A stretch of DNA of 64,000 nucleotides from an uncultured Chloroflexia bacterium (GTDB taxonomy: Bacteria; Chloroflexota; Limnocylindria; QHBO01): positions 137,592 through 201,591 of the forward strand of contig CAWIXR010000007.1 in assembly GCA_963840145.1 (NCBI GenBank), in the 5' to 3' direction. A model generated the notes under the pieces. The model searched no databases. It was not told the origin of the DNA and worked only from the letters and a program-made list of their open reading frames with translations. This document shows, in pieces, positions 2,046 through 40,929 of this stretch. The first letter of the stretch is position 1; the number at the start of each line of letters is the position of its first letter. Position numbers and translations under genes: made by a program.

Positions 2046-2182
2046 CCGGACGCACCGCCGGTCTGCCGGGACCGATGCCGGCCCGGTGACGTCGGAAGGC
2101 ACGCTGCTACAATCGGCCGTCCAGACCGTGTCTGGGACGTCTTCTTCCACCGCCGACCACTGATCGGAGGGACCGCGCTCCG

Positions 2183-2875
2183 ATGACCTTGACCGGCCGA
2201 CGCCCGCTCCGGGTCGAGCACCGGCTGACGCAGCCGAACGCATCCCTTGCCGATTTGACCGCGGCGGTCGGCCTCGCCACCGAGCACGAGCTGGCTTCCC
2301 TGACCGTGAGCCCATGGCTGGTGAAGGCTGCCAAGCGATCGCTGGGTCGGTCGCGGGTGACCCTCGGCACGGTGGTCGGCTTCCCGCACGGCGGCCAGCT
2401 GCTCAGCGTCAAGGCCTTCGAGGCGTCCAAGGCCCTCGAGCAGGGCGCGACCCAGATCGACTTCGTGCTCAACAGCGGCGCGCTCGTTTCCGGCGACGAC
2501 GAGACCGTCTTCAACGACATGCTGGCGGTCGTCGACATGGCGCACTCGGCGCTCGCCGCCGCCGGCGTGATCGTCGGCTCCGACCCGCTGGGCGAGGATC
2601 TCGTGCGTCGAGCGTGCCACCTGGCCGAGCGCGCGGGCGCCGACTACGTCGTCACCGGCGCCGGCAGCGCCAGCGCGAACGCCACCGTCGCCCGCACCCG
2701 ACTGCTGCGCGACAGCGTCGGGCCGCGGATCGGGGTGAAGGCCAGCGGCCGGTTCCGCAGCCTCGACCAGCTCACCGAAGCGGTCGCCGCCGGTGCGACG
2801 CGCGTCTCCGCGCAGCTCACTCCGGCTCTCGCCCGCACGGTCACGGACGAGCCGGCCGCCGCGCTGGCCCGTTAG
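2183..2875 (+). CDS. deoC: deoxyribose-phosphate aldolase
   Basis: 230 aa. ..LGTVVGFPHGG..GATQIDFVLN..IGVKASGRF.. is the class I DeoC aldolase pattern. GGAGGG lies upstream. Confidence 0.75.
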   Translation: MTLTGRRPLRVEHRLTQPNASLADLTAAVGLATEHELASLTVSPWLVKAAKRSLGRSRVTLGTVVGFPHGGQLLSVKAFEASKALEQGATQIDFVLNSGALVSGDDETVFNDMLAVVDMAHSALAAAGVIVGSDPLGEDLVRRACHLAERAGADYVVTGAGSASANATVARTRLLRDSVGPRIGVKASGRFRSLDQLTEAVAAGATRVSAQLTPALARTVTDEPAAALAR

Positions 2876-2894
2876 GCAGAGGGGAGGGCATGGA

Positions 2895-3938
2895 TTGAAG
2901 CTTCTCGTCGTCGGCGGCGCCGGCTACGTGGGGTCGACGAGCGTCGAGCGCTTCCTCGAGCGCGGCCACGAGGTGCTCGTCTACGACAACCTGGCGAGCG
3001 GCCACGCCGCCGCAGTGCCGGATGGCGCCACGTTGGTGATCGGCGACCTCGCCGATCGGATGCAGCTGCGCCATATCCTCTCCGAGGGGGTCGACGCGGT
3101 CCTCCACTGCGCGGCGCGCTCGCTGGTCGGCGAGTCGATGGAGAACCCTGGCGCCTACTACCGCACGAACGTCGCCCACGGCGTTTCGCTGCTCGAGGCG
3201 ATGCGGGATGCCGGCGTCACCCGCCTGGTCTACAGCTCGACCGCGGCGGTGTACGGCGAGCCGCGCCGGGTCCCGATCGCCGAGGCCGACCGCACTCAGC
3301 CGATCAATCCCTACGGCGAGACGAAGCTCGCCTTCGAGGGCGCAATGCGCTGGTTCTGCGCCGCGCACGAAATGCGCGCGATCAGCCTGCGCTACTTCAA
3401 CGTCGCCGGCGCGACCGAGCGCAACGGCGAGGACCACGACCCGGAGACGCACCTGATGCCGCTGATCCTGCGCGTCGCCGCCGGCGAGGCGACGCACGTC
3501 CAGATCTACGGGCAGGACTACCCGACGCCCGACGGCACCTGCATCCGCGACTTCATCCACGTCCGCGACCTGGCCGACGGCCACCTGCTGGCGCTCGAGG
3601 CCACCGACGAGGCCGATCCGTCGCTCGAGGTCTACAACCTCGGCTCGGCGGCCGGCTTCAGCGTTCGCGAGGTCGTCGAGGCCGCGCGGCGCGTCACGGG
3701 GCGACCGGTGCCCGCACGTGCCGTCAAGCGCCGCGTCGGTGACCCGCCGGTGCTGGTGGCGTCATCGCGCCGGGCGCGACGCGAGCTCGGTTGGCACCCG
3801 ACGCACTCGACCCTGGAGCACATGCTGGCCGACGCGTGGACCTGGCGCCTGAAGTACCCGAAGGGCTATGGCGATCGCCGTGCCGGCGCCCGGACCGCGC
3901 CGCCGGCCCGCAAGCAGGTCGCGGCCAGCGCCGGCTAG
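2895..3938 (+). CDS. galE: UDP-glucose 4-epimerase
   Basis: TTG 2895 is preceded by GGGGAGGG (2881-2888). (M)KLLVVGGAGYVGS Rossmann motif, YSSTAAVYG, NPYGETK (YxxxK). The ORF-track start 2793 lies inside deoC and is unlikely. Confidence 0.85.
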   Translation: MKLLVVGGAGYVGSTSVERFLERGHEVLVYDNLASGHAAAVPDGATLVIGDLADRMQLRHILSEGVDAVLHCAARSLVGESMENPGAYYRTNVAHGVSLLEAMRDAGVTRLVYSSTAAVYGEPRRVPIAEADRTQPINPYGETKLAFEGAMRWFCAAHEMRAISLRYFNVAGATERNGEDHDPETHLMPLILRVAAGEATHVQIYGQDYPTPDGTCIRDFIHVRDLADGHLLALEATDEADPSLEVYNLGSAAGFSVREVVEAARRVTGRPVPARAVKRRVGDPPVLVASSRRARRELGWHPTHSTLEHMLADAWTWRLKYPKGYGDRRAGARTAPPARKQVAASAG

Positions 3939-4360
3939 CCGCGCCGGGCGCAGCTCGCGCAGAGCCCGTAGAAGTCGACCCGCTCGTCGTCGATCCGGAA
4001 CCCGAGGTTGGCCGCCACGCGCTCGGCGACCGGGCGGATGTATGCCTCGTCGATCTCCTCGACGCGCCCGCATCGGTCACAGGAGAGGTGATGGTGGTGC
4101 CCGGGACGGCAGGCGACGTAGCCGTAGACGTGGCCGTCCAGCTCGAGGCGACGGGCGAGGCCGGCGGCGACGAGCGCCTCGAGGGTGCGAAAGACGGTGG
4201 CGCGCCCGATGCCCGGGTCGCCCCGGTGCATCTGCTCGTACAGGTCCTGAGCCGAGACCTGGCGGCCGGCGGCGACCAGCGCATCGGCAACCGCCAGGCG
4301 CTGCCGGGTGACGCGCTCCCCGGCGTCGCGCAGCCGCTCGGCGGTCGACGCGCCGCTCAA
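3935..4360 (-). CDS. zur: Fur-family metalloregulator, probably Zur
   Basis: C-terminal part of track ORF 3935..5461: ..VTRQRLAVADAL..SAQDLY..IGRATVFRTLE..HHHHLSCDRCGRV..FYGLCASCA. TTG 4360 overlaps the TGA of the upstream ZIP gene (TTGA). Confidence 0.8.
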   Translation of the reverse strand: MSGASTAERLRDAGERVTRQRLAVADALVAAGRQVSAQDLYEQMHRGDPGIGRATVFRTLEALVAAGLARRLELDGHVYGYVACRPGHHHHLSCDRCGRVEEIDEAYIRPVAERVAANLGFRIDDERVDFYGLCASCARRG

Positions 4361-5112
4361 TGTCCACCGACCGCGGCGGCGAACATCGAGAAGCCGTAGA
4401 TCGCGACCACGCCGATCAGTGTCGCGGCCACGACCCAGCGCGATCGGTCGCTGCGGTGGGCCTCCGGCAGCAGCTCCGCCGCGCCGATGTAGAGGAAGAA
4501 GCCGGCGAAGACGGCAAGCATCCCGCCGAGGACGATGTCCGGGATCGGCAGCAGCAGTCCGACCACGACGCCGAGCACGGGAGCGAGTGCCACGAGCCCG
4601 ACCCAGCGGTAGATCTCGTCTCGCGGCGTGCGGCTGGCCAGCAGCAGGCTGACGATGCCGATGCCGTCGCTGAAGCGGTGGACGACGACCACGACCGCGA
4701 TCACCAGCCCCAGCCCGCCGCCGACGGCAAGGCCGGCGGCCAGCGCGACGCCGTCGAGGAAGCTGTGCAGGCTCATGCCGATCGCGCCGATCAGGCCGAT
4801 GTGGTGATGCTCGGCGTCGCCGTGGTCCAGCTCGGTGGCCGTCTCGTGCCCGACGTGGAGGGCGGTCAGCTTCTCGATCGCGTAGAACGCCAGGAAGCCG
4901 AGGGCGGTGAAGATCATCGCCAGGTCCAGCGACCCGCCAAGGTGCTCGACGCTCTCGGGAATCAGGTCGAAGAAGGCTGCACCGATGCGGATCCCGGCGC
5001 CGAACGCGATCACGAGCCCGACATGGCCGACCGCGCGCATCGCCAGCATCCCCCCGACGAGGGCCGAGAAAAAGGCGCTGAACGAGACGAGGACGGCGGT
5101 GAGTGGCACCAT
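4357..5112 (-). CDS. zupT: ZIP-family zinc/divalent-metal transporter (ZupT-like)
   Basis: Multi-TM ORF with a His-rich loop (HETATELDHGDAEHHH) and HSFLDGVA / HRFSDGIG motifs. Start placed at ATG 5112 (MVPLTAVLVSF.., like ZupT N-termini). The track start GTG 5136 remains possible. Confidence 0.8.
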   Translation of the reverse strand: MVPLTAVLVSFSAFFSALVGGMLAMRAVGHVGLVIAFGAGIRIGAAFFDLIPESVEHLGGSLDLAMIFTALGFLAFYAIEKLTALHVGHETATELDHGDAEHHHIGLIGAIGMSLHSFLDGVALAAGLAVGGGLGLVIAVVVVVHRFSDGIGIVSLLLASRTPRDEIYRWVGLVALAPVLGVVVGLLLPIPDIVLGGMLAVFAGFFLYIGAAELLPEAHRSDRSRWVVAATLIGVVAIYGFSMFAAAVGGH

Positions 5113-5151
5113 AACGATACTCAGTATCATCTTCACTCATGCTCCCGTCAA
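5113..5151 (-). promoter_or_regulatory. candidate zupT-zur promoter with an overlapping palindromic operator (putative Zur box)
   Basis: On the minus strand: TTGACG (5151-5146), a 17-nt spacer, GATACT (5128-5123), then 10 nt to ATG 5112. The perfect palindrome GATACT-c-AGTATC (5116-5128) covers the -10 in an otherwise GC-rich region. Confidence 0.35.
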
Positions 5152-5241
5152 GGGTCCGGGCGGCTCGCGTGGTAGCATCGAGACGTTCCAGTGCAGGCAG
5201 CGCCACCCGCGAGCGCGCCCTCAATTTCCCAGGAGTCCCGT

Positions 5242-6498
5242 TTGCCCGATACCCATACCCAGCGCGCCCGCCCGCGCCGCCGTCACGCGGCCGCAGGCCG
5301 GGACCAGGCTGCCACGGAGAAGCCGGAGGCGCCATCGGAGCTCGAGGCTGCCGCCATCGCCGCCGCAGGCGGCTATCGGTTCGGCGACATCGAGGTGCCG
5401 GCCACGATCGCGCGCGCCATCGAGTCGATGGGCTTCGTGACCCCCACCGAGGTGCAGGCACGGTCCATTCCTCCGCTGCGGCGTGGCGAGGACCTCATCG
5501 GCCAGGCGCAGACGGGCACTGGCAAGACCGCGGCCTTCGGCATCCCCATCGTCGAGAAGATCGAGCCGTCGAGCCAGCACGTCCAGGCGCTCATCCTGAC
5601 CCCGACCCGCGAGCTGTGCGTGCAGGTCGAGGATGAGATCGGCCGCATCGGCCGATTCCGGGGCGTGCGCACCGTGGCCATCTACGGCGGCTCGAGCATG
5701 GACCGCCAGATCGAGGCGCTGAAGCGCGGGGCGCAGGTGGTGGTCGGCACGCCGGGGCGGGTGCTCGACCTCATCCGGCGTCGCGAGCTGCTGCTCGACC
5801 GCGTCCACACCGTGATCCTCGACGAGGCCGATCGGATGCTCGACATGGGCTTCATCGTCGACGTCGAGACGATCCTTTCCCGCTCCCCGCGCACGCGCCA
5901 GACAGCACTGTTCAGCGCCACGATGCCGTACGCGATCCTGCGCATCTGCGATCGGTTCATGAAGCCGAACCCCGCGCACGTCACCGTCCGGCCCGACCTG
6001 CGCACCGTCGAGACCGTGCGCCAGCTCGTGTACTTCGTCGCGGAACAGGACAAGGTCGCCGCACTCGTGGAGCTCAACGAGCACTACGGCTTCGACCGGC
6101 TGCTCACCTTCCGCCACACCCAGATCGGCGTGGACCGATTGGCCGCGACGCTGAAGCGCCGCGGCAAGAACGTCGCCGCGCTCCACGGCGGCCTGTCGCA
6201 GCGCGAGCGCGACCGCACCCTGGCGGCCTTCCGCGCCGGCAAGATCCAGTTCCTCATCGCCACCAACGTCGCCAGCCGCGGGCTCGACATCACCGACCTG
6301 CCGTACGTGCTGAGCTTCGACATCCCCGAGGACGCCGACACCTACGTCCATCGCATCGGCCGCACCGGGCGCGCCGGGCGCGAGGGGACCGCGATCACCT
6401 TCGTCGGCGAGTGGGACCTCGATGCCTGGGAGGCGATCCGCGCGGAAGTCGGCGCCAACGTCGAGATCGGCGAGCTGGACCTCTACGGCCCGGGCTGA
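5242..6498 (+). CDS. DEAD-box ATP-dependent RNA helicase
   Basis: Q motif (FVTPTEVQ), AQTGTGKT, PTRELC, DEAD, SAT, ..RGLDI.., HRIGRTGRAG. TTG 5242 with AGGAG 6 nt upstream is preferred over the track start 5191. Confidence 0.9.
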   Translation: MPDTHTQRARPRRRHAAAGRDQAATEKPEAPSELEAAAIAAAGGYRFGDIEVPATIARAIESMGFVTPTEVQARSIPPLRRGEDLIGQAQTGTGKTAAFGIPIVEKIEPSSQHVQALILTPTRELCVQVEDEIGRIGRFRGVRTVAIYGGSSMDRQIEALKRGAQVVVGTPGRVLDLIRRRELLLDRVHTVILDEADRMLDMGFIVDVETILSRSPRTRQTALFSATMPYAILRICDRFMKPNPAHVTVRPDLRTVETVRQLVYFVAEQDKVAALVELNEHYGFDRLLTFRHTQIGVDRLAATLKRRGKNVAALHGGLSQRERDRTLAAFRAGKIQFLIATNVASRGLDITDLPYVLSFDIPEDADTYVHRIGRTGRAGREGTAITFVGEWDLDAWEAIRAEVGANVEIGELDLYGPG

Positions 6499-8453: not shown

Positions 8454-10432
8454 TGGCGGCTGCCCGGCGCAAGACGCCGTATCGCATCCTTCTGCCGCTC
8501 GCGAACCCGAGGACGGCGCGCGACCTCGTGCGCATCGGTGCGGGCGTCGCCGACGGACGACCGACCGAGATCACCGCGCTCGGCATCGTCGAGGTGCCCG
8601 AGGGCGTGAGCCTCTCGGAGGGTGCGACCCAGGCACGGACCTCGCGCCGCCTCCTCCAGCGCGTGCTCGCGTTCGGCGACGAGGAGGGAGTCGAGCTGCG
8701 GACGCTGGTGCGCATCGGCCGCCATGCCGCCGACGGGGTGATCGAGGCGGTCGGCGAGGAGAGCACCGACCTCGTGATCTTCGGCTGGGGCGGCCCGCCG
8801 ACGCCGTCGCAGACCGCTCGGGCCGAGGCGGAGGACGCCGAGATGGTGCTCGCGGGCGAGCGGGCCTTGCCGCGTCCGGTGTTCAGCCCGACCATCGACG
8901 CGGTCGTGCGCGAGTCGCCGTGCGACATCGCGGTCGTCAAGCAGCGCGGCCTGGACAAGGTCGGCTCGATCCTCGTGCCGGTCCGCGGCGGCCCGCATGC
9001 CGAGCTGGCGATGCGCATCAGCCGCGACCTCGCCAAGCGCTTCGGCGCGAAGGTCGTCGTGCTGCACGTCGTGCCGAAGGGCATCGGCGCACGGGCGGTC
9101 GAGCGCGAGCAGGCGGCGGTCGACGCCTTCGTGCGCGAGCATGCCGGCACGCGACGGGCGACCGGCATCATCCGCGAGGCGACCAGCGTGCGCCAGGCGA
9201 TCATCAAGGAGGCCGCCAACCACGACCTGGTGGTGATGGGCGCATCGGCCCAGCCGACGAACGCCAGCCCGGACGGTCGCTACCTGTTCGGCACCCTGGC
9301 CGAGACGGTCGCCAGCAAGGCGAAGCCGACGGTGATCGTGGTGAAGACGAAGCAGTCGCTGGGTCTCGCCACCTTCGACGAGCTGCGCGCGTCGGAGGGC
9401 ACGCTCGCCCACGCCGACGCGTTCGTGGAGCGGACGCGGTCGTTGCCGGTGGTTGTCGACAAGTGGTTCGCGGAGAACACCTTCCACGCCCACGAGTTCG
9501 CCGACATCCGCAAGCTCGTCGCGCTCAAGGAGCGCCACAACCTGACGATCAGCCTCGGGTTGCCGGCGCTCAACGAGGAGAAGACGATCGGCATCGTCAT
9601 CAAGCGCGTGAAGAGCGCGCTGGTGGACCGCGTGCCGCTGATCGACCAGATCGTGGTGATCGACTCGGACAGCGAGGACCGCACCGCCCAGATCGCCGCC
9701 GACCTGGAGGTGCCGGTGTACCGCCACTCCCAGATCCTGCCCGAGCTCGGCTCCTTCGTCGGCAAGGGAGAGGCGCTGTGGAAGAGCCTCCACGTGCTCG
9801 ATGGCGACATCGTCGCCTGGATCGACACCGACATCAGCAATATCCAGCCGCGCTTCGTGTACGGGCTGCTCGGACCGCTGCTGGCCGAGCCGCAGCTCCA
9901 GTACGTGAAGGGCTTCTACCAGCGGCCGATCCGCAGCGGCGACAAGCTGCAGGCCGAGGGCGGTGGCCGCGTCACCGAGCTGATGGCGCGCCCGCTCATC
10001 AACCTCTTCTTCCCCGAGCTGTCGGGCATGATCCAGCCGCTGTCGGGCGAGTACGCCGGCCGCCGCGCGCTGCTCGAGCGACTGCCCTTCTTCACCGGCT
10101 ACGCCGTGGAGATCGGCCTGCTCATCGACATCCTCGACTCCGCCGGGCTTGCGGGCCTCGGGCAGGTCGACCTCGAGCGGCGCATCCACCGCAACCAGCC
10201 GCTGCCCAACCTGTCGCAGATGGCCTACGTCATCCTCCAGGGCGCCATCCGCAAGCTCGAGGAGCGCCATCGGCTCGAGCTGCTCACAGAGGTCGGCCGC
10301 GGCATGAAGCTCATCAACACCGGCAAGGACCACTTCAACCTCGAGGTGCGCGAGATCGGCGACGAGATCCGCCCACCGATGGCCTCGATCCCGGCCTACG
10401 TCGAGCGCCGCAGGTCACTGAAGGACCGATAG
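8453..10432 (+). CDS. gpgS: tandem universal-stress-protein domains fused to glucosyl-3-phosphoglycerate synthase (GT81)
   Basis: The N-terminal ~300 aa carry two USP-like repeats (..DLVIFGWGG.., ..HDLVVMGAS..GRYLFGTLAETVASKAKPTVIVVK). The C-terminal part has LPALNEEKTIG, VIDSDSEDRT, GKGEALW, WIDTDI, GGGRVTEL, PLSGEYAG, GYAVEIGLLID. Confidence 0.8.
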   Translation: MAAARRKTPYRILLPLANPRTARDLVRIGAGVADGRPTEITALGIVEVPEGVSLSEGATQARTSRRLLQRVLAFGDEEGVELRTLVRIGRHAADGVIEAVGEESTDLVIFGWGGPPTPSQTARAEAEDAEMVLAGERALPRPVFSPTIDAVVRESPCDIAVVKQRGLDKVGSILVPVRGGPHAELAMRISRDLAKRFGAKVVVLHVVPKGIGARAVEREQAAVDAFVREHAGTRRATGIIREATSVRQAIIKEAANHDLVVMGASAQPTNASPDGRYLFGTLAETVASKAKPTVIVVKTKQSLGLATFDELRASEGTLAHADAFVERTRSLPVVVDKWFAENTFHAHEFADIRKLVALKERHNLTISLGLPALNEEKTIGIVIKRVKSALVDRVPLIDQIVVIDSDSEDRTAQIAADLEVPVYRHSQILPELGSFVGKGEALWKSLHVLDGDIVAWIDTDISNIQPRFVYGLLGPLLAEPQLQYVKGFYQRPIRSGDKLQAEGGGRVTELMARPLINLFFPELSGMIQPLSGEYAGRRALLERLPFFTGYAVEIGLLIDILDSAGLAGLGQVDLERRIHRNQPLPNLSQMAYVILQGAIRKLEERHRLELLTEVGRGMKLINTGKDHFNLEVREIGDEIRPPMASIPAYVERRRSLKDR

Positions 10433-10443
10433 ACCACGCGCCG

Positions 10444-11004
10444 ATGCACGTCGTGGTCGTCCCCTACGACCCGGGCTGGCGCGAGCAGTTCCGCACCGTT
10501 CGCGATTCGCTGCTTGCCGCGCTCGAGGGCGTGCCGATCCGGTCGGTCGAGCACGTCGGCAGCACATCGGTTCCGGGACTCGCGGCGAAGCCGCAGATCG
10601 ACGTCGACGTGGTGGTCGCCGCCGAGCACCTGCCGGCAGCGCGCGCGGCACTCGAGGCCGCCGGCTACACCTGGCTCGGCGAGCTCGGGATCAACGACCG
10701 CCACGCGTTTCGGGCTCCGGATCATGCGCCGCCGCGCCACGTGTACGTGGCCGTCGACGGCTGCCTCGCGCTCCGGAACCATCTCGCGGTGCGCGACCTG
10801 CTGCGTCGCGATGCGCGGCTGCGCGACGAGTACGGGCAGCTCAAGCTCCAGCTCGCCGAACGCGACTACGCCGACATCGACCAATACGTGATCGACAAGT
10901 CGCCGATGATCCAGCGCATCCTCGCGGCGGCCGGCATCGATGACGTCGAGCGAGCCGCCATCGATGCCATGAACAGGGGAACCGGCGCGCGTCGGACGGG
11001 GTAG
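10444..11004 (+). CDS. GrpB-family (UPF0157) protein
   Basis: MHVVVVPYDPGWREQF..VEHVGSTSVPGLAAKPQIDV..RNHLAVRDLLR..YGQLK.. This is the C-terminal part of track ORF 8920..11004. Confidence 0.75.
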   Translation: MHVVVVPYDPGWREQFRTVRDSLLAALEGVPIRSVEHVGSTSVPGLAAKPQIDVDVVVAAEHLPAARAALEAAGYTWLGELGINDRHAFRAPDHAPPRHVYVAVDGCLALRNHLAVRDLLRRDARLRDEYGQLKLQLAERDYADIDQYVIDKSPMIQRILAAAGIDDVERAAIDAMNRGTGARRTG

Positions 11005-11141
11005 TCAGGGCGTGGAGGGACCGTCCACCGGCCGAGTCGGAGCTCCGCGAGCGAGCCCGTCCGAGCGATCTGACCGACCCTGCAACCCCCGGCGATGCGG
11101 TCCCACGCCGGGGTACACCTCTGCCCGTATCATCGGAGGGC

Positions 11142-12323
11142 ATGCCAGACCGATCCCTGCGCGTCCTCATCGCCCCCGACTCGTTCGGCGGCGCCCTCGA
11201 CTCGGTGGCAGTGGCCGCCGCCATCGCCCGTGGCTGGTCCGAGGTGCGCGGCGGTGACGAGGTGATCCGCCGCCCGATGGCCGATGGCGGCGAGGGCACG
11301 CTCGCCGCGGTGGCCGATGCGCTCGGCGACGCCGCGGAACGACGGACGGTCTCCACGACCGATGCCCTGGGCCGGCCGATCGACGCCGACTGGCTGCTGC
11401 TCGACGACGGTCGTGGCGCGTTCGTCGAGATGGCCGCCGCCTCCGGCCTGGCGCGGCTGACGCCGGAGGAGCGCACGCCCGAGAGCGCGCGGCGCGCCTC
11501 GACGCGCGGGACCGGCGACGTCATCCGCGCCGCGCTCGACGCCGGCGTCGAGCGGATCACGATCGGGCTCGGCGGTTCCGCGACCACCGACGGCGGCAGC
11601 GGACTGCTGCGCGCGCTCGGCATCCGCTTCCTCGGCAGGGACGGCGCCGAGCTCCCCGACGGCGGCGCGGCACTGGCGGACCTCGATCGGATCGATCCGG
11701 CCGGCCTCGACGCCCGGCTGGAGGAGGTGAGGCTCTCCGTCGCCTCCGACGTCACGAACACCCTGGTCGGGAGCCGCGGCGCGGCCGCGACCTACGGCCC
11801 GCAGAAGGGCGCCGACCCCGAAACGGTGGCCGAGCTCGACGCGGCGCTGGCGAGATTCGGCGCCGGCATCGAGGCGGCCACCGGGCGGCTGGTGGCCGAC
11901 CTGCCCGGCGCGGGCGCGGCCGGCGGTACGACCGCCGGCTTGCTCGGCTTCACGAGCGCCACCCTGCGCCCCGGCGTCGACGTCGTGGCCGAGCTGGTCG
12001 GGCTTGCCGCCGCGCTCGAGGAGGCCGACCTCGTGATCACCGGCGAGGGGCGCGCCGACGAGCAGACGCTGCAGGGCAAGACGGCGATGGGCGTCGCCAC
12101 CCTGGCTCGCTCGCGCAACAGCCCGGTCGTGCTGCTGTGCGGCGCCCTCGGCCCGGGTGCCGAGGCGCTCGACGTCGCGACGGCGCTGACCGTTGTGCAG
12201 CCGATCGGCGACCGGCCGGCGGACCTCTCGACCGCGATGGCCGACACCGATCGGCTTCTGGAGGCCGCGGCCGCGAGGCTCGCGCGCACCGTCGGCATCG
12301 GCCTGGAGCTTGCGCGCCCGTAG
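11142..12323 (+). CDS. glycerate kinase
   Basis: 393 aa. RVLIAPDSFGG..MADGGEGTL..GLGGSATTDGG..ITGEGRADEQTLQGK.. is the GlxK/GarK family pattern. TATCAT 11128-11133 lies 8 nt before the ATG. Confidence 0.85.
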   Translation: MPDRSLRVLIAPDSFGGALDSVAVAAAIARGWSEVRGGDEVIRRPMADGGEGTLAAVADALGDAAERRTVSTTDALGRPIDADWLLLDDGRGAFVEMAAASGLARLTPEERTPESARRASTRGTGDVIRAALDAGVERITIGLGGSATTDGGSGLLRALGIRFLGRDGAELPDGGAALADLDRIDPAGLDARLEEVRLSVASDVTNTLVGSRGAAATYGPQKGADPETVAELDAALARFGAGIEAATGRLVADLPGAGAAGGTTAGLLGFTSATLRPGVDVVAELVGLAAALEEADLVITGEGRADEQTLQGKTAMGVATLARSRNSPVVLLCGALGPGAEALDVATALTVVQPIGDRPADLSTAMADTDRLLEAAAARLARTVGIGLELARP

Positions 12324-12337
12324 GGGCGCATCGGTCC

Positions 12338-13180
12338 ATGGCGAGGAAGGGTCCGAGCCCGCAGAAACGGGCGGCGGATCGGCGGAAACGCCGGAGGCTG
12401 GCGGACGTCGTGCTGGAGCGCCTGGGTGATCGGTACGAGCATCCGACCTGGGCGGGGCCGCGCGTCGACACCGTCAGCGAGCTGGTGCTCACGATCCTGA
12501 GCCAGAACACCGCCGATGTGAACTCGTTCCGGGCTTTCACCGCGCTCCGCGCGCGCTACCCCGACTGGGACACGGTGCTGGCCGCGCCGACCGACGAGCT
12601 CGAGGACGTCATCCGCCCCGGCGGCCTGGCGCCGACGAAGTCGCGCCGCATCCAGCACGTGCTGGCCGAGGTGCACGCCGCAACGAACGGCACCTGGGAC
12701 CTCGGCTTCCTCGGCACCATGCCGCTGGACGAGGCGCGCGAGTGGCTCATCGCACTGCCGGGGATCGGCCGCAAGACGGCCTCGATCATCCTGCTCTTCG
12801 GCTTCGGGCGGCCGGCGATGCCGGTGGACACCCACGTCCATCGCGTCACGACGCGGCTCGGGATGCTGCCGCCGCGCACCCCGCTGCCACGCGCCCACGA
12901 CCTGCTGGAGGAGGTGCTCGCGCCGGACGAGATGTACCCGTTCCACGTCGAGACGATCCGGCACGGGCGCGACACCTGCCGCGCCCCGCGGCCGATCTGC
13001 GGCCTCTGCCCGCTGACCGATGCCTGCGCCTACTACGTCCTCGCCGCGAAGGGCAAGGCGCCGATGGCGCCAATGCCGAGGGGCTCAGCCGCGGACGGCC
13101 CGCCGCGTTACCACGACGAGCTGATCCACGGCTGGATGCCGCCGGAGAAGCCGGTCAGCCCCGCCGGTCCCTCCGGCTGA
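12338..13180 (+). CDS. HhH-GPD base-excision glycosylase, endonuclease III-related, with a 4Fe-4S cluster loop
   Basis: ..LVLTILSQNT..LPGIGRKTASIILLF..PVDTHVHRV.. and C-x6-C-x2-C-x5-C (CRAPRPICGLCPLTDAC). Basic N-terminal tail. ATG 12338. Confidence 0.75.
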   Translation: MARKGPSPQKRAADRRKRRRLADVVLERLGDRYEHPTWAGPRVDTVSELVLTILSQNTADVNSFRAFTALRARYPDWDTVLAAPTDELEDVIRPGGLAPTKSRRIQHVLAEVHAATNGTWDLGFLGTMPLDEAREWLIALPGIGRKTASIILLFGFGRPAMPVDTHVHRVTTRLGMLPPRTPLPRAHDLLEEVLAPDEMYPFHVETIRHGRDTCRAPRPICGLCPLTDACAYYVLAAKGKAPMAPMPRGSAADGPPRYHDELIHGWMPPEKPVSPAGPSG

Positions 13181-31907: not shown

Positions 31908-33638
31908 ATGCCCCCGCGCTCGACGCCCTTCGCCGCGCTTGCCGGCACTGCCGCCGCCGTCGGCGCGACCCGCAGCAAGAACGCGAAGCGCGACCTGCTC
32001 GCCGCGTACCTGCGTGACCTGCCGCTCGGCGACCTGCCGGGGGCGACCGTCTTCTTCGCCGGCCGGCCGCTCGTCGACCCGACCGCCAAGCTCGGCCTGG
32101 GGTGGGTCCAGCAGGGCGCGGCGCTGGCCGCGGCGAGTGGCGCCGGCGAGGAGGCGCTGCGGGCCGCGTACCTCCGCCACTCGGACTTCGGCGACGCGGC
32201 CGCTGACCTCGTCACCGAGGGCAGCGGCAGGCCATTGACGGTCACGGACGTCGCGAACGGCTTCGCCGCGATCGCCGCGGCGGGATCCGCTGCCGAACGG
32301 GTCGCGCTGATGACCGATCTCTACCGTCGCGCAACGACGGAGGAGGCGCGCTTCATCGGCCGCGTCGCGTCGCGCGAGACCCGCATCGGCCTGCGCGAGG
32401 GGCTGCTGGAGGAGGCGATCGCCACCGCCTTCGACGCCGATCCGGATGCGGTGCGCCGGGCGCACATGCTGACCGGCGAGATCGGTGAGACGGCGGTACT
32501 GGCCCGCGAGGGGCGCCTCGCCGAGGCCGCGCTGCACGTCGGCCGTCCGATCCGCTTCATGCTGGCGACGCCGGTGGCGGACGCCGTCGAGGTGATGCGG
32601 CGGGTCGGCGACGAGGCCTGGATCGAGGATAAGTACGACGGCATCCGCGCCCAGCTGCACATCGAGGCCGGCGGCACACCGCGGCTGTTCAGCCGCGACC
32701 TCAACGACGTGACCCGCTCGTTTCCGGAGGTCGTCGAGGCCGCCGCGGCGCTGGCCGGCGAGGCGCCGCTGGTCATCGACGGCGAGCTCGTGCCGTGGCG
32801 AGAGGGATCGGTCCTGGACTTCGCGTCGCTGCAGACCCGGTTGGGCCGGGTGAAGCCCTCGAAGGAGCTGCTGGCCGAGGTGCCGGTCGTGCTCGTCGCC
32901 TTCGACCTGCTGCACCACGCCGGCCGCGACCTGCTCGAATCGCCCCTCCGGGAACGTCGCGCCGCCCTCGACGCGCTGTCGCTGCCGGAGCGGACCGGCG
33001 AGCGGATGCTGCGCTCGCACCTGGCGACGGCGCGATCGGCGAAGGAGGTCGACGGCCACTTCGACGACGCCCGCGAACGGCGCAACGAGGGCCTGATGGT
33101 CAAGGACCCCGACTCGACCTACCAGCCCGGTCGCCGCGGGCTCGGGTGGCTGAAGCTGAAGAAGGCGCTGGCCACGCTCGACTGCGTCGTCGTCGGCGTC
33201 GAGTGGGGCCACGGCAAGCGCCGCGGCGTGCTCAGTGACTACACCTTCGCCGTGCGCGAGACCGATGAGCCCGACGCGCGCCTGCTCACGATCGGCAAGG
33301 CCTACACCGGCCTGACCGATGCCGAGATCGCGACGATGACCGAGCATTTCAAGGCGATCACGCTCCAGGACCATGGCCGATACCGGACCGTCGTGCCCGA
33401 GGTCGTCGTCGAGATTGCCTTCGACCGGATCATGCGCTCGGCGCGGCACCGGTCGGGGTTCGCGATGCGCTTCCCGCGGATCGCGCGCATCCGGGACGAC
33501 AAGATGCCGGCCGAGATCGACACGATGGCGACCGTCGAGGCGCTGTTCGGGGAGCAGGCTTCCGGCCGCATCCTGCTCGCCACCGGCGCGAGCGGCGAGA
33601 CCGAGCGCATCGCCGCCGTCGGCTCCGGCGACGAGTGA
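31908..33638 (+). CDS. ATP-dependent DNA ligase (three-domain DBD-NTase-OB type)
   Basis: 576 aa. Motif I EDKYDGIRAQLH, VIDGELV (III), LVAFDLL (IIIa), NEGLMVKD (IV), WLKLKK (V), and OB/motif VI ..RFPRIARIRDDK. TAGACT lies 6 nt before the ATG. Confidence 0.9.
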   Translation: MPPRSTPFAALAGTAAAVGATRSKNAKRDLLAAYLRDLPLGDLPGATVFFAGRPLVDPTAKLGLGWVQQGAALAAASGAGEEALRAAYLRHSDFGDAAADLVTEGSGRPLTVTDVANGFAAIAAAGSAAERVALMTDLYRRATTEEARFIGRVASRETRIGLREGLLEEAIATAFDADPDAVRRAHMLTGEIGETAVLAREGRLAEAALHVGRPIRFMLATPVADAVEVMRRVGDEAWIEDKYDGIRAQLHIEAGGTPRLFSRDLNDVTRSFPEVVEAAAALAGEAPLVIDGELVPWREGSVLDFASLQTRLGRVKPSKELLAEVPVVLVAFDLLHHAGRDLLESPLRERRAALDALSLPERTGERMLRSHLATARSAKEVDGHFDDARERRNEGLMVKDPDSTYQPGRRGLGWLKLKKALATLDCVVVGVEWGHGKRRGVLSDYTFAVRETDEPDARLLTIGKAYTGLTDAEIATMTEHFKAITLQDHGRYRTVVPEVVVEIAFDRIMRSARHRSGFAMRFPRIARIRDDKMPAEIDTMATVEALFGEQASGRILLATGASGETERIAAVGSGDE

Positions 33639-33654
33639 CGTACGATCCGCCCCG

Positions 33655-33840
33655 ATGAGCGCGTTCGACGCGGGGGCGTTCGGCGGCGGCGGGATCGGTG
33701 CGGTGCGACCGGTCGCGGTCGAGATCTACACCGCGGCCTACCGGGTCTCGGGCAGCATCGAGACGCGCTTCAGCCGCGTCGACCGAGATCCTCAACCAGC
33801 AGGTCGGCGGCCACCTGGCGGTCGATCCGCGCGACCGTGA
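33655..33840 (+). CDS. N-terminal fragment of a tandem-domain hypothetical protein (see findings)
   Basis: ATG 33655 MSAFDAGAFGGGGIGAVRPVAVEIYTAAYRVSGSIETRFSRVD.. The coding-like codon bias leaves this frame at about 33784. Confidence 0.45.
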   Translation: MSAFDAGAFGGGGIGAVRPVAVEIYTAAYRVSGSIETRFSRVDRDPQPAGRRPPGGRSARP

Positions 33841-34250
33841 GCGAGCACGCCGATCCGACCGCGCCGCTCACCGCGCCGACCGCGCTGGTGTCGGTCGAGG
33901 AGATCCTCATCATGGTCGCGGCCGACCTCTCGGGCAGCTCCGGCGAGATGCGCATCCAGAAGCGCCCCGTTCACGCGCAGCTCGCCATCCCGCCCTTCCT
34001 GATCGGCGGCACGATCCACGTTCCGATGGAGAGCCGGCCCGTCGACGGGCTGCTTCTCGGAACCGACCAGTTCATCGCCATGACCGATGCCACGGTCGCG
34101 TCGGGCACGCATCCCGAGCTCGGTCGCACGGCCCCGGTGCTCGCGCTGCGCCGCGGCCGCGCGCACGTGCTGCTGATCGCCGACGACGACGAGGCGGATG
34201 AGCCCGCGAGCGAGGCGCCCGGCGAGGCGCCCGGCGAGGAGGGCGGCTAG
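33837..34250 (+). CDS. C-terminal part of the same tandem-domain hypothetical protein
   Basis: 137-aa ORF from GTG 33837. The second repeat ..VHAQLAIPPFLIGGTIHVP..FIAMTDATVASG..VLALRRGRAHVLLIADDD mirrors the pattern of the upstream fragment. Acidic tail. Confidence 0.6.
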   Translation: MSEHADPTAPLTAPTALVSVEEILIMVAADLSGSSGEMRIQKRPVHAQLAIPPFLIGGTIHVPMESRPVDGLLLGTDQFIAMTDATVASGTHPELGRTAPVLALRRGRAHVLLIADDDEADEPASEAPGEAPGEEGG

Positions 34251-35002
34251 GGTCCCCGGTCGACGACCGGCCTGGCCGCGAACGGCCTGGCCGGCTCTGC
34301 GGCGTCGAGCACCGCCTCGATGAGGCGGGCGCTGTCCGCGGCGTCCATCCGTCGCACGAGGCCGATCGAGTTCGCCCACCACGGCGCATTGTCGGCGGTC
34401 ACGATCTCGTCCTCGGGCTCCTCGAGCACGATCTGCGAGTGCTGGCGCGGGAAGACGACGGCGGGGCGTATCGGCATGTCCGGCAGGCCGGCATCCCGGG
34501 CCCAGCGCACGACGCCGTCACAAAGCGAGTTGGCGTCCCAGCTCGGGTTCGTCCGGCAGCGGATCCATCCCTTCTTGCCGCGGGCGTCGAACTCCCAGAT
34601 CCGACCACGCACGCGGTAGCGGCCGACCCAGTCGCGCACGGTGATGACCCGGACACCCGCGGGGCCCACGAGGATGCCGTCGAGGCGGCTTGCGTCGCGG
34701 ATCGCGAGCCGTGGGGCGACGATCAGCGCGTAGCTGTCGTCGAAGGTCTCACCCATCAGGGCGGCCATCGCGCCGGTCAGCTGCCGCGACCGGTTCGGCT
34801 TCAGGATGCGGACGAGCCACGCGGCGCCGATGCCGAGGGCGATGGCGGCAGTTCCGGCACCGAGCGCCGCACCGAGTGTGGTCGTCGAGACGAGCAGGGT
34901 CAGCTCCATCGCCAGGATGCCGGTCACGACCATCGCGATCGCCAGGAGCATCGGCCGTCGGCGCGCGGTCGTCGACAGGGCCTTCGGCCGGATCACGCGC
35001 AT
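34247..35002 (-). CDS. membrane-anchored NERD-like domain protein
   Basis: 251 aa. Two N-terminal TM helices, then ..YALIVAPRL..RLDGILVGPAGVRVITVRDWVGRY.. resembling a nuclease-related (NERD) domain. GGAGG lies 8 nt upstream of the ATG. Confidence 0.45.
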   Translation of the reverse strand: MRVIRPKALSTTARRRPMLLAIAMVVTGILAMELTLLVSTTTLGAALGAGTAAIALGIGAAWLVRILKPNRSRQLTGAMAALMGETFDDSYALIVAPRLAIRDASRLDGILVGPAGVRVITVRDWVGRYRVRGRIWEFDARGKKGWIRCRTNPSWDANSLCDGVVRWARDAGLPDMPIRPAVVFPRQHSQIVLEEPEDEIVTADNAPWWANSIGLVRRMDAADSARLIEAVLDAAEPARPFAARPVVDRGP

Positions 35003-35034: not shown

Positions 35035-35505
35035 ATGTCGAATCACATCGTCGCCACCGTCGATCCCGAGACCAGCCGCGTCGACGCCCGCGCCGACGGC
35101 GGCGGATCGATCGCGCTCGAGCTCGATGAGCGCGGCGGACCGACTCCGATCGACGGCCTGCTGGCGTCGCTCGCGGGGTGCACGGCGATGGACGTCGCCG
35201 GCATCCTGAAGAAGAAGCGGCAGTCCGCGACCGCGTACGAGGTCGAAGTCGACGGAGATCGCGTCGAGGAGCACCCGCGCGTCTTCACCGCCATCCGCGT
35301 CGAGCACCGGGTGCGCGGCGCGGTCGAGCCCGAGGCGCTGCGGCGTTCGATCGAGCTGTCGGCGACGATCTACTGCCCGGTCAGCGCGATGCTGTCGGCG
35401 GTCGCGCGCATCGAGCATCGGTACCGGCTGGTCGACGATGCCGGCCGCGAGCATGCGGCCGTGGTGGCTGTGCTCGGCCCGGGGGAGCGGCGCCTCCCGG
35501 GCTAG
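35035..35505 (+). CDS. OsmC/Ohr-family peroxiredoxin-like protein
   Basis: 156 aa. ..PTPIDGLLASLAGCTAMDV.. and ..ELSATIYCPVSAML.. are the two conserved Cys contexts. TAGGCT lies 6 nt before the ATG. Confidence 0.8.
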   Translation: MSNHIVATVDPETSRVDARADGGGSIALELDERGGPTPIDGLLASLAGCTAMDVAGILKKKRQSATAYEVEVDGDRVEEHPRVFTAIRVEHRVRGAVEPEALRRSIELSATIYCPVSAMLSAVARIEHRYRLVDDAGREHAAVVAVLGPGERRLPG

Positions 35506-36051: not shown

Positions 36052-36960
36052 ATGGCGCGATCGATGTGGCGGGGGGCGATCCAGTTCGGGCTGGTGACCA
36101 TTCCCGTCAAGCTCTACCTGGCCACCGAGACGGGCGGCATCGGCTTCAACCTGCTGCATGCCTCCTGTGGAAACCGCATCCAGATGAAGGTCTATTGCCC
36201 GTTCCACGACGAGGTCATCCCGCGCTCGGAGACCGTCCGCGGATACGAGTGGAGCAAGGGCAAGTACGTCGTCGTCACCGACGAGGACATCGACTCGGTG
36301 CCGCTCAAGACGGTCCGCGCGATCGAGATCGAGACCTTCGTTCCGGCCTCTCGCGACAGCGGCACGCAGTTCGTGAAGCAGGCCTACTACCTCGAGCCTG
36401 AGCAGATCGGCGCCAAGGCCTTCTACCTGCTGAAGTCGGTCCTGGCCGAGCAGGAGAAGAGCGCCATCTGCAAGATCGTGCTGAAGGATCGCGAGCAGCT
36501 CGCCGCCCTCAACCCCTTCAGCCAGACGATGCTGCTGACCACCCTGCACTGGCCCGATGAGGTCCGCACCACCGAGGAGCTGAACCTCCCCGAGGACGAG
36601 ATCGAGATCAAGGCCTCCGAGAAGAAGATGGCCGAGCAGCTTGTCGCGAGCATGACCGGCGAGTTCGACCCCGCCGACTACGCCGACGGCTACCGTGAGG
36701 CGCTGATGGCGGTGATCGAGAAGAAGGTCGCCGGCGAGAAGCCTGAGCCGGCCGTCCGCGCCGAGCCGACGAACATCACCGACCTCATGGCCGCCCTCGA
36801 GGCATCGGTTGCGGCCGCGCGAACCGATCGCAAGGCGGAGGCCGAGAAGCCGGCCGCGGCAAAGGCGAAGCCCACCAAGGCGAAGGCGACGCGGGCCAAG
36901 AAGGCCGCCGCGGAGGCCGAGGCGGAGGCACCGCGGCAGCGGCGCCGCAAGACCGCCTGA
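36052..36960 (+). CDS. ku: Ku protein (non-homologous end joining) with a Lys/Ala-rich C-terminal tail
   Basis: MARSMWRGAIQFGLVTIPVKLYLAT..RGYEW..YVVVTDEDI..IEIETFV..YYLEP..AFYLL.. Tail ..KPAAAKAKPTKAKATRAKKAAAE.. Confidence 0.9.
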   Translation: MARSMWRGAIQFGLVTIPVKLYLATETGGIGFNLLHASCGNRIQMKVYCPFHDEVIPRSETVRGYEWSKGKYVVVTDEDIDSVPLKTVRAIEIETFVPASRDSGTQFVKQAYYLEPEQIGAKAFYLLKSVLAEQEKSAICKIVLKDREQLAALNPFSQTMLLTTLHWPDEVRTTEELNLPEDEIEIKASEKKMAEQLVASMTGEFDPADYADGYREALMAVIEKKVAGEKPEPAVRAEPTNITDLMAALEASVAAARTDRKAEAEKPAAAKAKPTKAKATRAKKAAAEAEAEAPRQRRRKTA

Positions 36961-36970
36961 TCCGCGGGTC

Positions 36971-37666
36971 GTGCCCGGAGAGCAGCTCGACCTTCCGATC
37001 CCGACCGAGCCTGGCGCGGCGCTGCCGGCGCGGCTGGCGCCGATGCAGCCGACGGCCGGCGCGGAGCCGTTCGACGACCCCGCCTATCTCTTCGAGCCGT
37101 GGTGGCCGGGCGTCCGGGCCCTCGCGTGGATCGAGGGCGGGCGCCTCGTCCGCCTCCAGGTCGAGGGCATGGCCGACGCCCTCACCGCCTTCGCCGAGCT
37201 CGGCGAGGAGCTTCCCGAACGCCTGACCGAGGACGGCGTCGTGCTCGACGGCTGGCTCCTCGCGCTCGACGAGGGCGGCTGGCTCGACACCGATCTCCTG
37301 CGCCGGCGGCTCGCCGGTGAGCGCGGCGCCGGGCGCCCGGGCTTCGTCGCCTGCGACCTGCTGTGGAGCGGCGGGGCGCCGTGGCACGCGCGCCGCTTCG
37401 CCACCCGCCGCGACCACCTCGAGGGCGTCCTCCGCGACGGCGACCGCTGCGTCGTGTCGCACGCGCTGCGCGGAGAGGGGACGTTGCTGGCCGAGGCGCT
37501 TGCGCGCTTCGGGCTCACCGGCATCTCGGCCCGCCGCCTCGACGCACGGTATCGCTTCGGCTCGGCCGGGGAGGGCTGGCTGAGGCTCCCGGTCGCCCCG
37601 GCCGTGCGCACTGAGCGCCCGCGCCTGGCCCTCATCCAGCGCCTGCCGCTCGACGAGCGCGACTAG
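36971..37666 (+). CDS. LigD/LigC-like nucleotidyltransferase-fold protein lacking all catalytic residues (pseudo-ligase)
   Basis: GTG 36971. ..LAPMQPT..YLFEPWWPGVRALA..VVLDGWLLALD..FVACDLLWSGG..RRFATRRDHLE..GLTGISARRLDARYRFGSAGEGWLRLP. Ligase motif order is preserved but K, D, E and K/K are replaced. No OB domain. Confidence 0.7.
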   Translation: MPGEQLDLPIPTEPGAALPARLAPMQPTAGAEPFDDPAYLFEPWWPGVRALAWIEGGRLVRLQVEGMADALTAFAELGEELPERLTEDGVVLDGWLLALDEGGWLDTDLLRRRLAGERGAGRPGFVACDLLWSGGAPWHARRFATRRDHLEGVLRDGDRCVVSHALRGEGTLLAEALARFGLTGISARRLDARYRFGSAGEGWLRLPVAPAVRTERPRLALIQRLPLDERD

Positions 37667-39894: not shown

Positions 39895-40929
39895 TCAGCC
39901 CGCATAGCGCTCGGCAGCCTGGCGCACCGAGCTCGCAACCGCCTTGCGCAGCGCCTCGGGCTCGAGCACCTCGACGGCGCCGCCCCACGACATGATCCAC
40001 GGCTGGATCTCGACGATGCCCGCGACCGTGACCGACAGCTCGAGTCGGCCGCGAGGCAGCTCCTTCAGCTGCTGGGATCGGTGCCAGACCGCCTCGCGCA
40101 CGCGGTGCGCGACCGACGTCTCGAAGCGCAGGCGGACGTGCACCGGCGGCGTCGAGTCCGACGACCAGATGCCCCACGAATTGGCGAGCCAGGCGTCGGG
40201 GTCGAAGTCGGCGGGGATCTCGTAGCGGTCCTGCGTGAGCGTCGCGGATCGGATGCGCTCGACCTTGTAGGTGCGCATCGCCTTCGCCGGCTCGTCGTGG
40301 CCGATGAGGTAGACGCTGCGCAGGGCCGCGTCCGGCTCGAGGAAGTACGGGTGCACGCGGGTGCGCTTCTGGTCGCCGGTGCCGGGGTCGTAGAGGATCT
40401 CGACCACCCGCCCCTCGGCCCAGCCGCGCGCCACCGCGCTGAAGCTGCGGGTGAACGGCTCGTTCGGGTCGTGAGCGCCGACCGCCAGCATCGTGGCGGT
40501 CACGTGGCGAGCGATCGGCTGCGGCAGGGCGTCGGCCAGCTTCGTGAAGGCGCTGACCACGGCCGCGTCGTACTGGTCGCTCCAGCGCGCGATCAGGCGC
40601 GAGGCGAGGAAAAGGACGATCGCCTCGGGCACCGACAGGCGAAGCGGCGGCAGGAAGAACTTGCGGTCGATGCCGTAGTGCCCGCGACCGGCCTGGAAGA
40701 CGGGGACGCCCAGCTCGTCCTCGAGCGCCCGGATGTCGCGATACACGGTGCGCGTCGTCATGCCGGTCAGGCTCGCGATCTCGCTGACGGCCACGCCGGC
40801 CTCGGTGCCGCCCTTCGAAAAGAGGATCGAGACGACGCTCAGCAGCCGCGCGAGCCGGTCGCGCTTGCGACCGACCCGGTCGTCCCCACCGTCATCCCAG
40901 CCCGACCAGCGATCGCCCTCGTCCAGCAC
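39895..40929 (-). CDS. HTH-WYL-domain transcriptional regulator (YafY/PafBC-like)
   Basis: ..VSEIASLTGMTTRTVYRDIRALEDELGVPV.. HTH. ..VEILYDPGTGDQKRTRVHPYFLE..SVYLIGHD..RTYKVERI.. WYL domain. C-terminal WCX-like region. Confidence 0.8.
   Translation of the reverse strand: MLDEGDRWSGWDDGGDDRVGRKRDRLARLLSVVSILFSKGGTEAGVAVSEIASLTGMTTRTVYRDIRALEDELGVPVFQAGRGHYGIDRKFFLPPLRLSVPEAIVLFLASRLIARWSDQYDAAVVSAFTKLADALPQPIARHVTATMLAVGAHDPNEPFTRSFSAVARGWAEGRVVEILYDPGTGDQKRTRVHPYFLEPDAALRSVYLIGHDEPAKAMRTYKVERIRSATLTQDRYEIPADFDPDAWLANSWGIWSSDSTPPVHVRLRFETSVAHRVREAVWHRSQQLKELPRGRLELSVTVAGIVEIQPWIMSWGGAVEVLEPEALRKAVASSVRQAAERYAG

Follow-up and report, generated by a model that had tools for sequence, protein, structure and literature searches.

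What can a protein contribute to DNA end joining if it is encoded directly behind ku, has the fold of a DNA ligase and contains not a single lysine? Bacterial NHEJ (non-homologous end joining) is taught as the work of two proteins, Ku and LigD, and the question is raised by a gene pair in a 64,000-nucleotide stretch of DNA, here called the window, from an uncultured bacterium of the Chloroflexota class Limnocylindria (contig CAWIXR010000007.1 of assembly GCA_963840145.1). In this window ku is followed by an open reading frame (ORF), which we call psl, for a LigD-type ligase-fold protein. An initial annotation suggested that all its catalytic residues are substituted and that it is a maintained non-catalytic paralogue, which would act as a Ku-associated end-binding or scaffold factor and recruit a separate ligase. 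Following up on this with homology searches, a structural model and a survey of related loci, we find that psl encodes a conserved pseudo-enzyme and that the conserved unit is the pair of ku and psl. As to its role, we lean towards Psl being a LigD-derived non-catalytic adaptor that binds Ku in end joining while a separate ligase does the sealing.

Psl has the nucleotidyltransferase (NTase) fold of the ligase superfamily and is a homologue of the ligase (LIG) domain of LigD. In a phmmer search against PDB sequences, residues 21-205 align to the LIG domain of Mycobacterium tuberculosis LigD (1VS0, 6NHX and 6NHZ; E=4.7e-10 for 1VS0), with archaeal ligases as weaker matches. The two top NCBIfam models both describe LigD, namely PRK09632 (E=1.4e-22) and TIGR02779 (E=6.8e-16), with scores below the respective cut-offs (79.9 bits vs 989 and 58.4 vs 227.75). 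Pfam family PF01068, DNA_ligase_A_M, is matched at 16.9 bits (E=0.005), under its gathering threshold of 26.2, and some relatives of Psl have precomputed matches to this family. An AlphaFold2 (AF2) model computed with 134 homologues as input reaches a mean pLDDT of 90.2 and a pTM of 0.86, and its top 50 Foldseek matches in the PDB are ATP-dependent DNA ligases, matched in their adenylation domains. The TMq is 0.74 for ligases of Pyrococcus and Thermococcus and 0.66-0.68, at 28% identity, for M. tuberculosis LigD. The coordinates and content given for the ORF in the initial annotation are correct. Profile and structure comparisons of the kind that it proposed return ligase adenylation domains, the LIG domain of LigD among them, and the alignment to 1VS0 places no lysine at the motif I position.

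With the M. tuberculosis domain Psl shares the NTase fold, the motif order I-III-IIIa-IV-V, the adjacency to ku and probably a Ku-contacting role. Unlike that domain it is free of lysine, acidic instead of neutral or basic, equipped with additional conserved terminal peptides, and devoid of OB domain, motif VI and the polymerase (POL) and phosphoesterase (PE) domains. The chain stops 25 residues past motif V and therefore has no room for an OB domain; DNA_ligase_A_C is not matched, and the AF2 model consists of the NTase domain and a short tail, as the initial annotation had it. POL and PE domains are absent from Psl, from the 64-kb window (tblastn with full-length LigD queries) and from 1.31 Mb of sequence in 93 related loci. 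The JGI pipeline labels the family 'bifunctional NHEJ protein LigD'.

How completely the active site has been dismantled becomes clear from the alignment to 1VS0, which agrees with the substitutions read by eye in the initial annotation: Trp takes the place of the nucleophilic lysine and of the motif III Glu, Pro that of the motif I Asp, and Arg, Arg and Pro stand where motifs IV and V have lysine (Table 1). The acidic residues that contact metal and ribose are lost as well. Of the original pocket, the motif I Gly and the motif IIIa aromatic residue and Asp are kept; the window protein has in addition the motif I Arg, which is present in just 48 of 134 family sequences. Psl contains 28 arginines and no lysine, next to 26 lysines in Ku and 15 in the nearby ligase, and among 77 orthologues 65 are likewise lysine-free, the other 12 having a single lysine at scattered, non-conserved sites. 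A complete lack of lysine excludes both a displaced nucleophilic lysine and a lysyl-AMP intermediate, and a shifted catalytic lysine, for which the family offers no conserved candidate, was ruled out. From its sequence, Psl is predicted to be unable to form ligase-adenylate or to seal DNA, so that self-adenylylation and nick-sealing assays are predicted to be negative.

These losses did not arise recently. In a scan by pattern search of one genome per GTDB species, for which 80 loci were fetched, 232 species genomes encode a relative of psl, nearly all of them named Candidatus Limnocylindria or Chloroflexota. Homologue searches yield about 1000 proteins of about 230 aa, the named ones again from metagenome-assembled genomes (MAGs) of Candidatus Limnocylindria or Chloroflexota; all sequences considered here derive from MAGs or metagenomes. 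A profile search started from an alignment of 18 sequences gave the same close relatives, and a divergent member served as seed to capture diversity. In an exhaustive HMMER search, evaluated on 50%-identity representatives, family members extend down to about 43% identity and all contain FEPWWPG.

Residue conservation was assessed on an alignment of 134 sequences gathered by hidden Markov model and not by pattern. Trp44, Trp45 and Gly47 are invariant, as is Arg205 (each 134/134), Pro46 is found in 133 sequences, Asp129 in 131, Arg188 and Pro207 in 129 each, and position 125 is Phe, Tyr or Leu. The initial annotation had asked whether the Trp, Pro, Trp and Arg substitutions are conserved. This holds for Trp44, Pro46, Arg188 and Arg205; the motif III Trp is confined to the subclade of the window, and elsewhere Thr, Ala or Ser fills the position, in no case Glu. 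Together with the preceding PFDD, the remodelled loop of motif I (PFDD...FEPWWPG) forms the best-conserved block of the protein. That the substituted loop is the top-conserved block indicates that the change was selected for, beyond being merely tolerated.

Such strict conservation of a former active site raises the alternative that the pocket retains a ligand-dependent or catalytic function, either by binding ATP, AMP, NAD or a 5'-adenylated or 5'-phosphate DNA end non-covalently or by using a nucleophile other than lysine. The invariant Trp44, Trp45 and Gly47 in the most conserved block, and the retention of the motif IIIa aromatic residue, Asp129, Arg188 and Arg205, would all fit such a function. 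It is at odds with the lack of lysine and of any invariant alternative among His, Cys, Ser and Tyr, with the loss of the Asp and Glu that contact metal and ribose, with the missing motif VI OB domain, which is needed for step 1, and with the loss of the motif I Arg in two-thirds of the family; the bulky Trp and Pro may also just fill the pocket. Taken together, we consider a functional pocket of this kind quite improbable.

Purifying selection on psl is comparable to that on its neighbours. Between the closest relatives, Nei-Gojobori (NG86) dN/dS is 0.07-0.10 for psl, and in the same pairs it is 0.08-0.22 for ku and 0.08-0.11 for the ligase; the medians over 150 pairs with unsaturated dS are 0.28, 0.23 and 0.18, respectively. 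Of 81 complete orthologues, covering 54-93% identity, 77 have an intact reading frame of 225-241 aa, and a further clade lies at about 50%. In five loci (L015, L039, L044, L062 and L065) the frame of ku or psl is extended, truncated or frameshifted, which looks like errors (frameshift or stop loss) or lesions of single MAG contigs; a single MAG series, its contigs named contig_N, accounts for four of these loci and makes assembly indels a plausible cause. In the window, GC content at third codon positions (GC3) is 94% in psl, 93% in ku and 94% in the upstream ligase, in local DNA of 72% GC, and this match marks the psl frame as real and the long antisense ORFs as artefacts. Psl is thus a pseudo-enzyme by its lost catalytic residues, its purifying selection and its phylogenetic persistence, and the idea of a maintained non-catalytic paralogue has been borne out. 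One could still ask whether psl is the remainder of a normal ligD that has lately become a pseudogene, as it occupies the slot after ku that belongs to ligD in many bacteria and is labelled LigD by pipelines. The intact frames across this range of identities, the low dN/dS, the conserved start codon and junction with ku and the invariance of the very residues that were substituted leave this explanation with a negligible probability, and it was ruled out on conservation and dN/dS.

The genomic context ties psl to ku. Wherever upstream DNA is available, in 82 loci, the gene directly before psl is ku, and in 79 of them psl starts 6-14 nt past the ku stop, the commonest gaps being 8, 11 and 10 nt. 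GTG is the start codon of psl in 81 of 84 cases, including the window, where it sits 10 nt past the TGA of ku. Since the frame relation between the two genes is variable, termination-reinitiation is a better account than frameshifting; psl is tightly coupled to ku, and the coupling is probably translational. The variation of the gap without conservation of frame also rules out a Ku-Psl fusion or a programmed frameshift. An apparent fusion of ku and psl in locus L044 looks like a frameshift or stop-loss error, or a lesion, of a single MAG contig.

The pair outlasts its surroundings. Within the subclade of the window (54-93% identity) the gene order is Lig, DUF6812, NERD-like, OsmC, receiver, ku, psl, Wzy_C, and a three-domain ligase is present, at 1.4-4.4 kb from ku, in each of the 53 subclade loci whose upstream DNA extends over 6.6 kb or more. 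A divergent clade of about 50% identity (L088-L092) retains ku and psl, with a 4-nt overlap in three loci and, in two, a gap of less than 100 nt from one called gene to the other, amid wholly different neighbours: urease, MoxR/DUF58/DUF4129 and sulfatase genes. None of these five loci has an ATP-dependent ligase within 10 kb of the pair, which rules out the upstream ligase as a core component. The conserved unit is therefore the ku-psl pair, and the LigB-type ligase is linked to it in the subclade of the window only. Of the two associations that the initial annotation had drawn, the one with Ku extends over two entirely different contexts, and the one with the ligase 2.4 kb upstream is a feature of one subclade. 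Two loci of the divergent clade have further peculiarities. L088 contains two ku genes (4833-5762 and 9051-10004) less than 5 kb apart, with psl after the second only, and in L089 the pair is directly followed by a gene (10847-12598, + strand) for a beta-CASP/metallo-beta-lactamase nuclease of 583 aa, from the superfamily that also contains Artemis/SNM1 and RNase J.

The charge of the protein informs us on the kind of partner it might bind. Psl is acidic, with a net charge of -7 and a pI of 5.2 (family median -8), whereas the NTase regions of lysine-containing active homologues have about +1 and a pI of 7.9. The last 53 residues of Ku, in turn, are strongly basic with a net charge of +9. Being acidic and having lost the OB domain, Psl is more likely an adaptor between proteins than a factor that binds DNA ends by itself, so that the 'end-binding' part of the original proposal has been weakened.

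The same charges would also suit a regulator or antagonist of Ku. By masking either the basic tail of Ku at its C-terminus or the site where the ligase docks, Psl might limit threading or bridging, gate NHEJ against recombination or aid the unloading of Ku. Besides the acidity of Psl facing the +9 tail, an obligate co-expression with Ku, as read from gene linkage, and the loss of all catalytic and DNA-clamping (OB) functions are compatible with this, and the C-terminal region of Ku is a known determinant of threading, bridging and the recruitment of LigD (PMC4889933; PMC13201618). Antagonists are, however, seldom fixed in stoichiometric operons throughout a class, and operons from other lineages in which a pseudo-ligase stands between ku and ligD suggest cooperation. 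We think antagonism distinctly unlikely.

Beyond the NTase domain, two short peptides that were not among the observations of the initial annotation stand out. The first is the hexapeptide QLDLPI at residues 5-10, which is near-invariant within variable flanks (Q5 in 131, L6 in 133, L8 in 132 and I, F or L at position 10 in 133 of the 134 sequences) and lies in a segment, residues 1-14, that is disordered in the AF2 model (pLDDT <50). At the level of sequence it matches the consensus QLxLxL of bacterial beta-clamp-binding motifs, found for instance as 6-QLSLPL-11 in Hda (PMC4564189, PMC5397184). For a protein of this composition, the chance expectation of a clamp-like motif in the first residues is about 2e-4. 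The 150 nearest representatives were compared where 12 or more residues come before the NTase domain. A motif of this kind occurs in that stretch in 0 of 40 lysine-containing proteins, 7 of 15 psl-family members and 9 of 32 lysine-less proteins outside the family. Two other matches to QLxLx[LIF] in the window, in an FAD oxidoreductase ORF and in the Wzy_C gene, appear incidental. The second peptide is the C-terminal tail RPRLALIQRLPL, which takes the place of linker and OB domain; R216, P217, L219, L221, R224, L225 and P226 are each at least 90% conserved, and in the AF2 model, where the pLDDT of the tail is 70-84, residues 219-222 form a short helix.

From the first peptide follows another reading, in which Psl is an adaptor to the beta sliding clamp. 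QLDLPI would insert into the cleft of DnaN and tether Ku-bound ends to the polymerases and ligase on the clamp, or Ku to clamp-marked breaks, so that the replisome tool-belt replaces LigD. The near-invariance of a disordered hexapeptide amid variable flanks, its rarity by chance and its distribution among lysine-less and lysine-containing relatives are points in its favour. Psl resembles E. coli Hda and other clamp partners with QLxLxL or QLxLF in having an N-terminal disordered hexapeptide (residues 5-10, compared with 6-11 in Hda) but is unrelated to them in its fold and its pathway, and binding to the clamp is a candidate property of Psl read from its sequence. The match is one of sequence, the literature yielded no link of Ku or LigD to the clamp, the peptide may instead bind Ku or some other partner, and the ku-linked lysine-less groups that have an OB domain lack the motif. 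We therefore put this idea forward tentatively, and judge it unlikely.

Psl is not the only protein of its kind. The motif I lysine is absent from many of the nearest LigD-like clusters, and three groups among them are instructive. The first keeps the OB domain and was traced by a pattern scan built on two sequences. In seven metagenome loci (L093, L096-L101) ku is followed by a lysine-less NTase+OB protein with the motif FEVRWDGLR and then by a true LigD with PE and LIG domains, in which the motif I lysine is present (YELKLDGFR or a close variant). In L093, ku spans 2980-3843, the lysine-less LIG gene 3866-4990 and ligD starts at 4990, with overlapping stop and start codons at the second junction; the contigs with this arrangement have about 67% GC. 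In L095 a lysine-less NTase+OB gene (FEVLWDGVR; 979-2046, + strand) converges with a full-length ligD of PE-LIG-POL architecture (2056-4839, - strand), and a ku fragment (4931-5224, - strand) lies on the far side of, and upstream of, that ligD. In a second group, seen in L102, L116 and L129, ku is followed by a protein of about 350 aa, again NTase+OB, with FELMWGG, the lysine being replaced by Met. Like Psl, the FEVRWDGLR and FELMWGG proteins are LigD-LIG homologues encoded right after ku whose motif I lysine has been exchanged, here for Arg or Met. Unlike Psl they have retained the OB domain and part of the other motif residues and have neither the QLxLxL peptide nor the RLPL tail, and the FEVRWDGLR group has a bona fide LigD next in the operon. 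Dead LIG paralogues beside ku in several groups thus form a recurrent arrangement, and in at least one lineage the real ligase is part of the same operon. In a further representative (P0224, 568 aa), a lysine-less LIG module of NTase+OB type with VEFAWEGLR as motif I is fused to a His_kinase domain.

The third group, characterized by FEP[SATW]WGGxR (L086-L087, L108-L126), is a sister group of psl. Its members are NTase-only, lysine-less and about 240-280 aa long, and as in Psl an N-terminal peptide (DQLSLxL) and a C-terminal one (ALIRRLPL(LFDE)) flank the domain. They resemble Psl in size, in both terminal peptides and in the loss of the nucleophile, and differ in being located away from ku, in keeping the motif III Glu and in having a WGG loop where Psl has WWPG. 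No linkage to ku was found in this group, and the contexts are varied and the neighbourhoods free of repair genes. A link to PPK2 seen with the genes of L086 (5001-5744) and L087 (3919-4662) was not reproduced in the other loci and was dropped.

How, then, could a ligase domain without chemistry serve end joining? A functional analogy comes from Mycobacterium, where LigC is reported by Aniukwu et al. in 2008 to seal when the ligase of LigD is dead. For M. smegmatis LigD K484A, which is ligase-dead, a comparable NHEJ efficiency is given, in a citation within PMC12848934. There an inactive LIG module still supports Ku-dependent joining and another ligase seals, as is proposed for Psl; unlike K484A, a laboratory point mutant in an otherwise full POL-PE-LIG protein, the inactivity of Psl is natural, ancient and fixed, and the NTase domain stands alone. 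In addition, the ligase domain of LigD is contacted by the Ku core and a minimal C-terminal region (PMC13201618). The notion of Psl as a Ku-binding adaptor draws on this contact, on the K484A result and on the operons of ku, pseudo-ligase gene and ligD, which by analogy lend indirect support to a scaffold working alongside a separate ligase. According to the mechanism we propose, Psl would be produced together with Ku and bound to it, re-using the surface by which the ancestral LIG domain bound Ku. Its negative charge would perhaps pair with the basic Ku tail, and the conserved peptides QLDLPI and RPRLALIQRLPL would dock partner proteins. Sealing would be left to a separate ligase, namely the LigB-type neighbour in the subclade of the window and an unlinked ligase elsewhere.

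Several points weigh against this proposal. The adaptor role is deduced from gene linkage and analogy, and the survey covered individual loci of Limnocylindria, so that a normal LigD or LigC might be encoded elsewhere in the genomes. In the window, the neighbouring ligase is on a transcription unit separate from ku-psl, and in the divergent clade, as described above, it is missing from the vicinity altogether. The strict WWPG loop and the retained Arg188, Arg205 and motif IIIa aromatic residue could reflect binding of a ligand in the pocket, which would go beyond a passive scaffold. Finally, the terminal peptides recur in a sister group that is not linked to ku, which suggests that the ancestral role of the fold was maybe independent of Ku.

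In a broader generalization, Ku-dependent end joining in bacteria would have a third, unrecognised component, the lysine-less pseudo-ligases derived from LigD. In Limnocylindria their minimal form, an NTase domain alone, would attach to Ku and use QLDLPI to recruit the beta clamp with its polymerases and ligase for a LigD-independent NHEJ, and in other lineages the form with an OB domain would cooperate with the true LigD of the three-gene operons. This picture is speculative, and we would give it a low probability.

The arrangement of the locus is summarized in Table 1. The ku-psl operon is bordered on its 5' side by the divergent receiver gene and on its 3' side by a convergent Wzy_C/TPR gene whose stop overlaps that of psl. 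In keeping with the initial annotation, the ligase at 31908-33638 is the sole other ligase in the window and the only intact one. The DUF6812-like ORF and the NERD-like gene travel with this LigB-type ligase across the subclade. At a distance of 2.2 kb downstream of ku-psl, the window encodes an HTH-WYL-WCX regulator of PafC-like architecture (39895-40929, - strand); its HTH_PafC match is weak and below threshold, and the arrangement is conserved in L001-L004. In relatives, a gene with a CYTH domain lies between ku-psl and the WYL regulator.

Table 1. Genes, junction, motifs and peptides of the ku-psl locus, in window coordinates
Feature	Position	Strand	Description and matches
ku	36052-36960	+	302 aa, first gene of the bicistron; Pfam Ku 1.4e-40; TIGR02772 3.6e-80
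ku-psl junction	36961-36970	+	10 nt: TGA tccgcgggtc GTG
psl	36971-37666	+	231 aa, GTG start; lysine-free pseudo-ligase, LigD-LIG-type NTase domain with N- and C-terminal peptides, without OB domain
N-terminal hexapeptide QLDLPI	36983-37000	+	residues 5-10; candidate beta-clamp-binding motif
Motif I	37091-37117	+	LigD FEGKWDGYR, psl FEPWWPGVR; Lys nucleophile is Trp44, Asp is Pro46 (vs 1VS0)
Motif III	37238-37270	+	LigD VVLDGEAVVLD, psl VVLDGWLLALD; Glu is Trp95
Motif IIIa region	37343-37366	+	FVACDLLW; aromatic residue and Asp kept
Motif IV	37517-37552	+	LigD EGVIAKRRDSRY, psl TGISARRLDARY; core EGVIAK is TGISAR; Glu is Thr183, Lys is Arg188
Motif V	37574-37591	+	GWLRLP; LigD WVKxK, psl WLRLP; Lys is Arg205, Lys is Pro207
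C-terminal tail	37616-37651	+	RPRLALIQRLPL; replaces linker and OB domain
ATP-dependent DNA ligase	31908-33638	+	LigB/Lig1-type, three domains, EDKYDGIR intact; Pfam DNA_ligase_A_N, _M, _C; NCBIfam PRK03180 2.5e-109
DUF6812-like ORF	33837-34250	+	subclade-conserved, outside core
NERD-like gene	34247-35002	-	weak match, membrane protein; subclade-conserved, outside core
OsmC	35035-35505	+	subclade-conserved, outside core
Orphan receiver	35517 to ~35954	-	subclade-conserved, outside core

The proposal that this is an undescribed variant agrees with the searchable literature, which gave no account of a lysine-less LigD paralogue, of Ku paired with a pseudo-ligase or of clamp motifs among NHEJ factors, and nothing relevant on NHEJ in Limnocylindria. 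The lysine-less paralogues between ku and ligD in other lineages are apparently undescribed as well. Genome surveys assess NHEJ from domains alone; the main comparative one scores the presence of domains only and does not consider catalytic residues (PMC7719229).

For Limnocylindria, a class of abundant soil Chloroflexota, these results mean that NHEJ capacity is mis-scored, as the partner of Ku is labelled LigD and has no capacity to form ligase-adenylate. They point to a natural and fixed counterpart of the observation that a ligase-dead LigD supports NHEJ, with the chemistry supplied by another ligase. Together, the ku-psl pairs and the operons of ku, pseudo-ligase gene and ligD suggest that non-catalytic LIG paralogues are recurrent accessory factors of Ku, and the candidate clamp peptide, if it proves true, would connect Ku-dependent repair with the replisome tool-belt.

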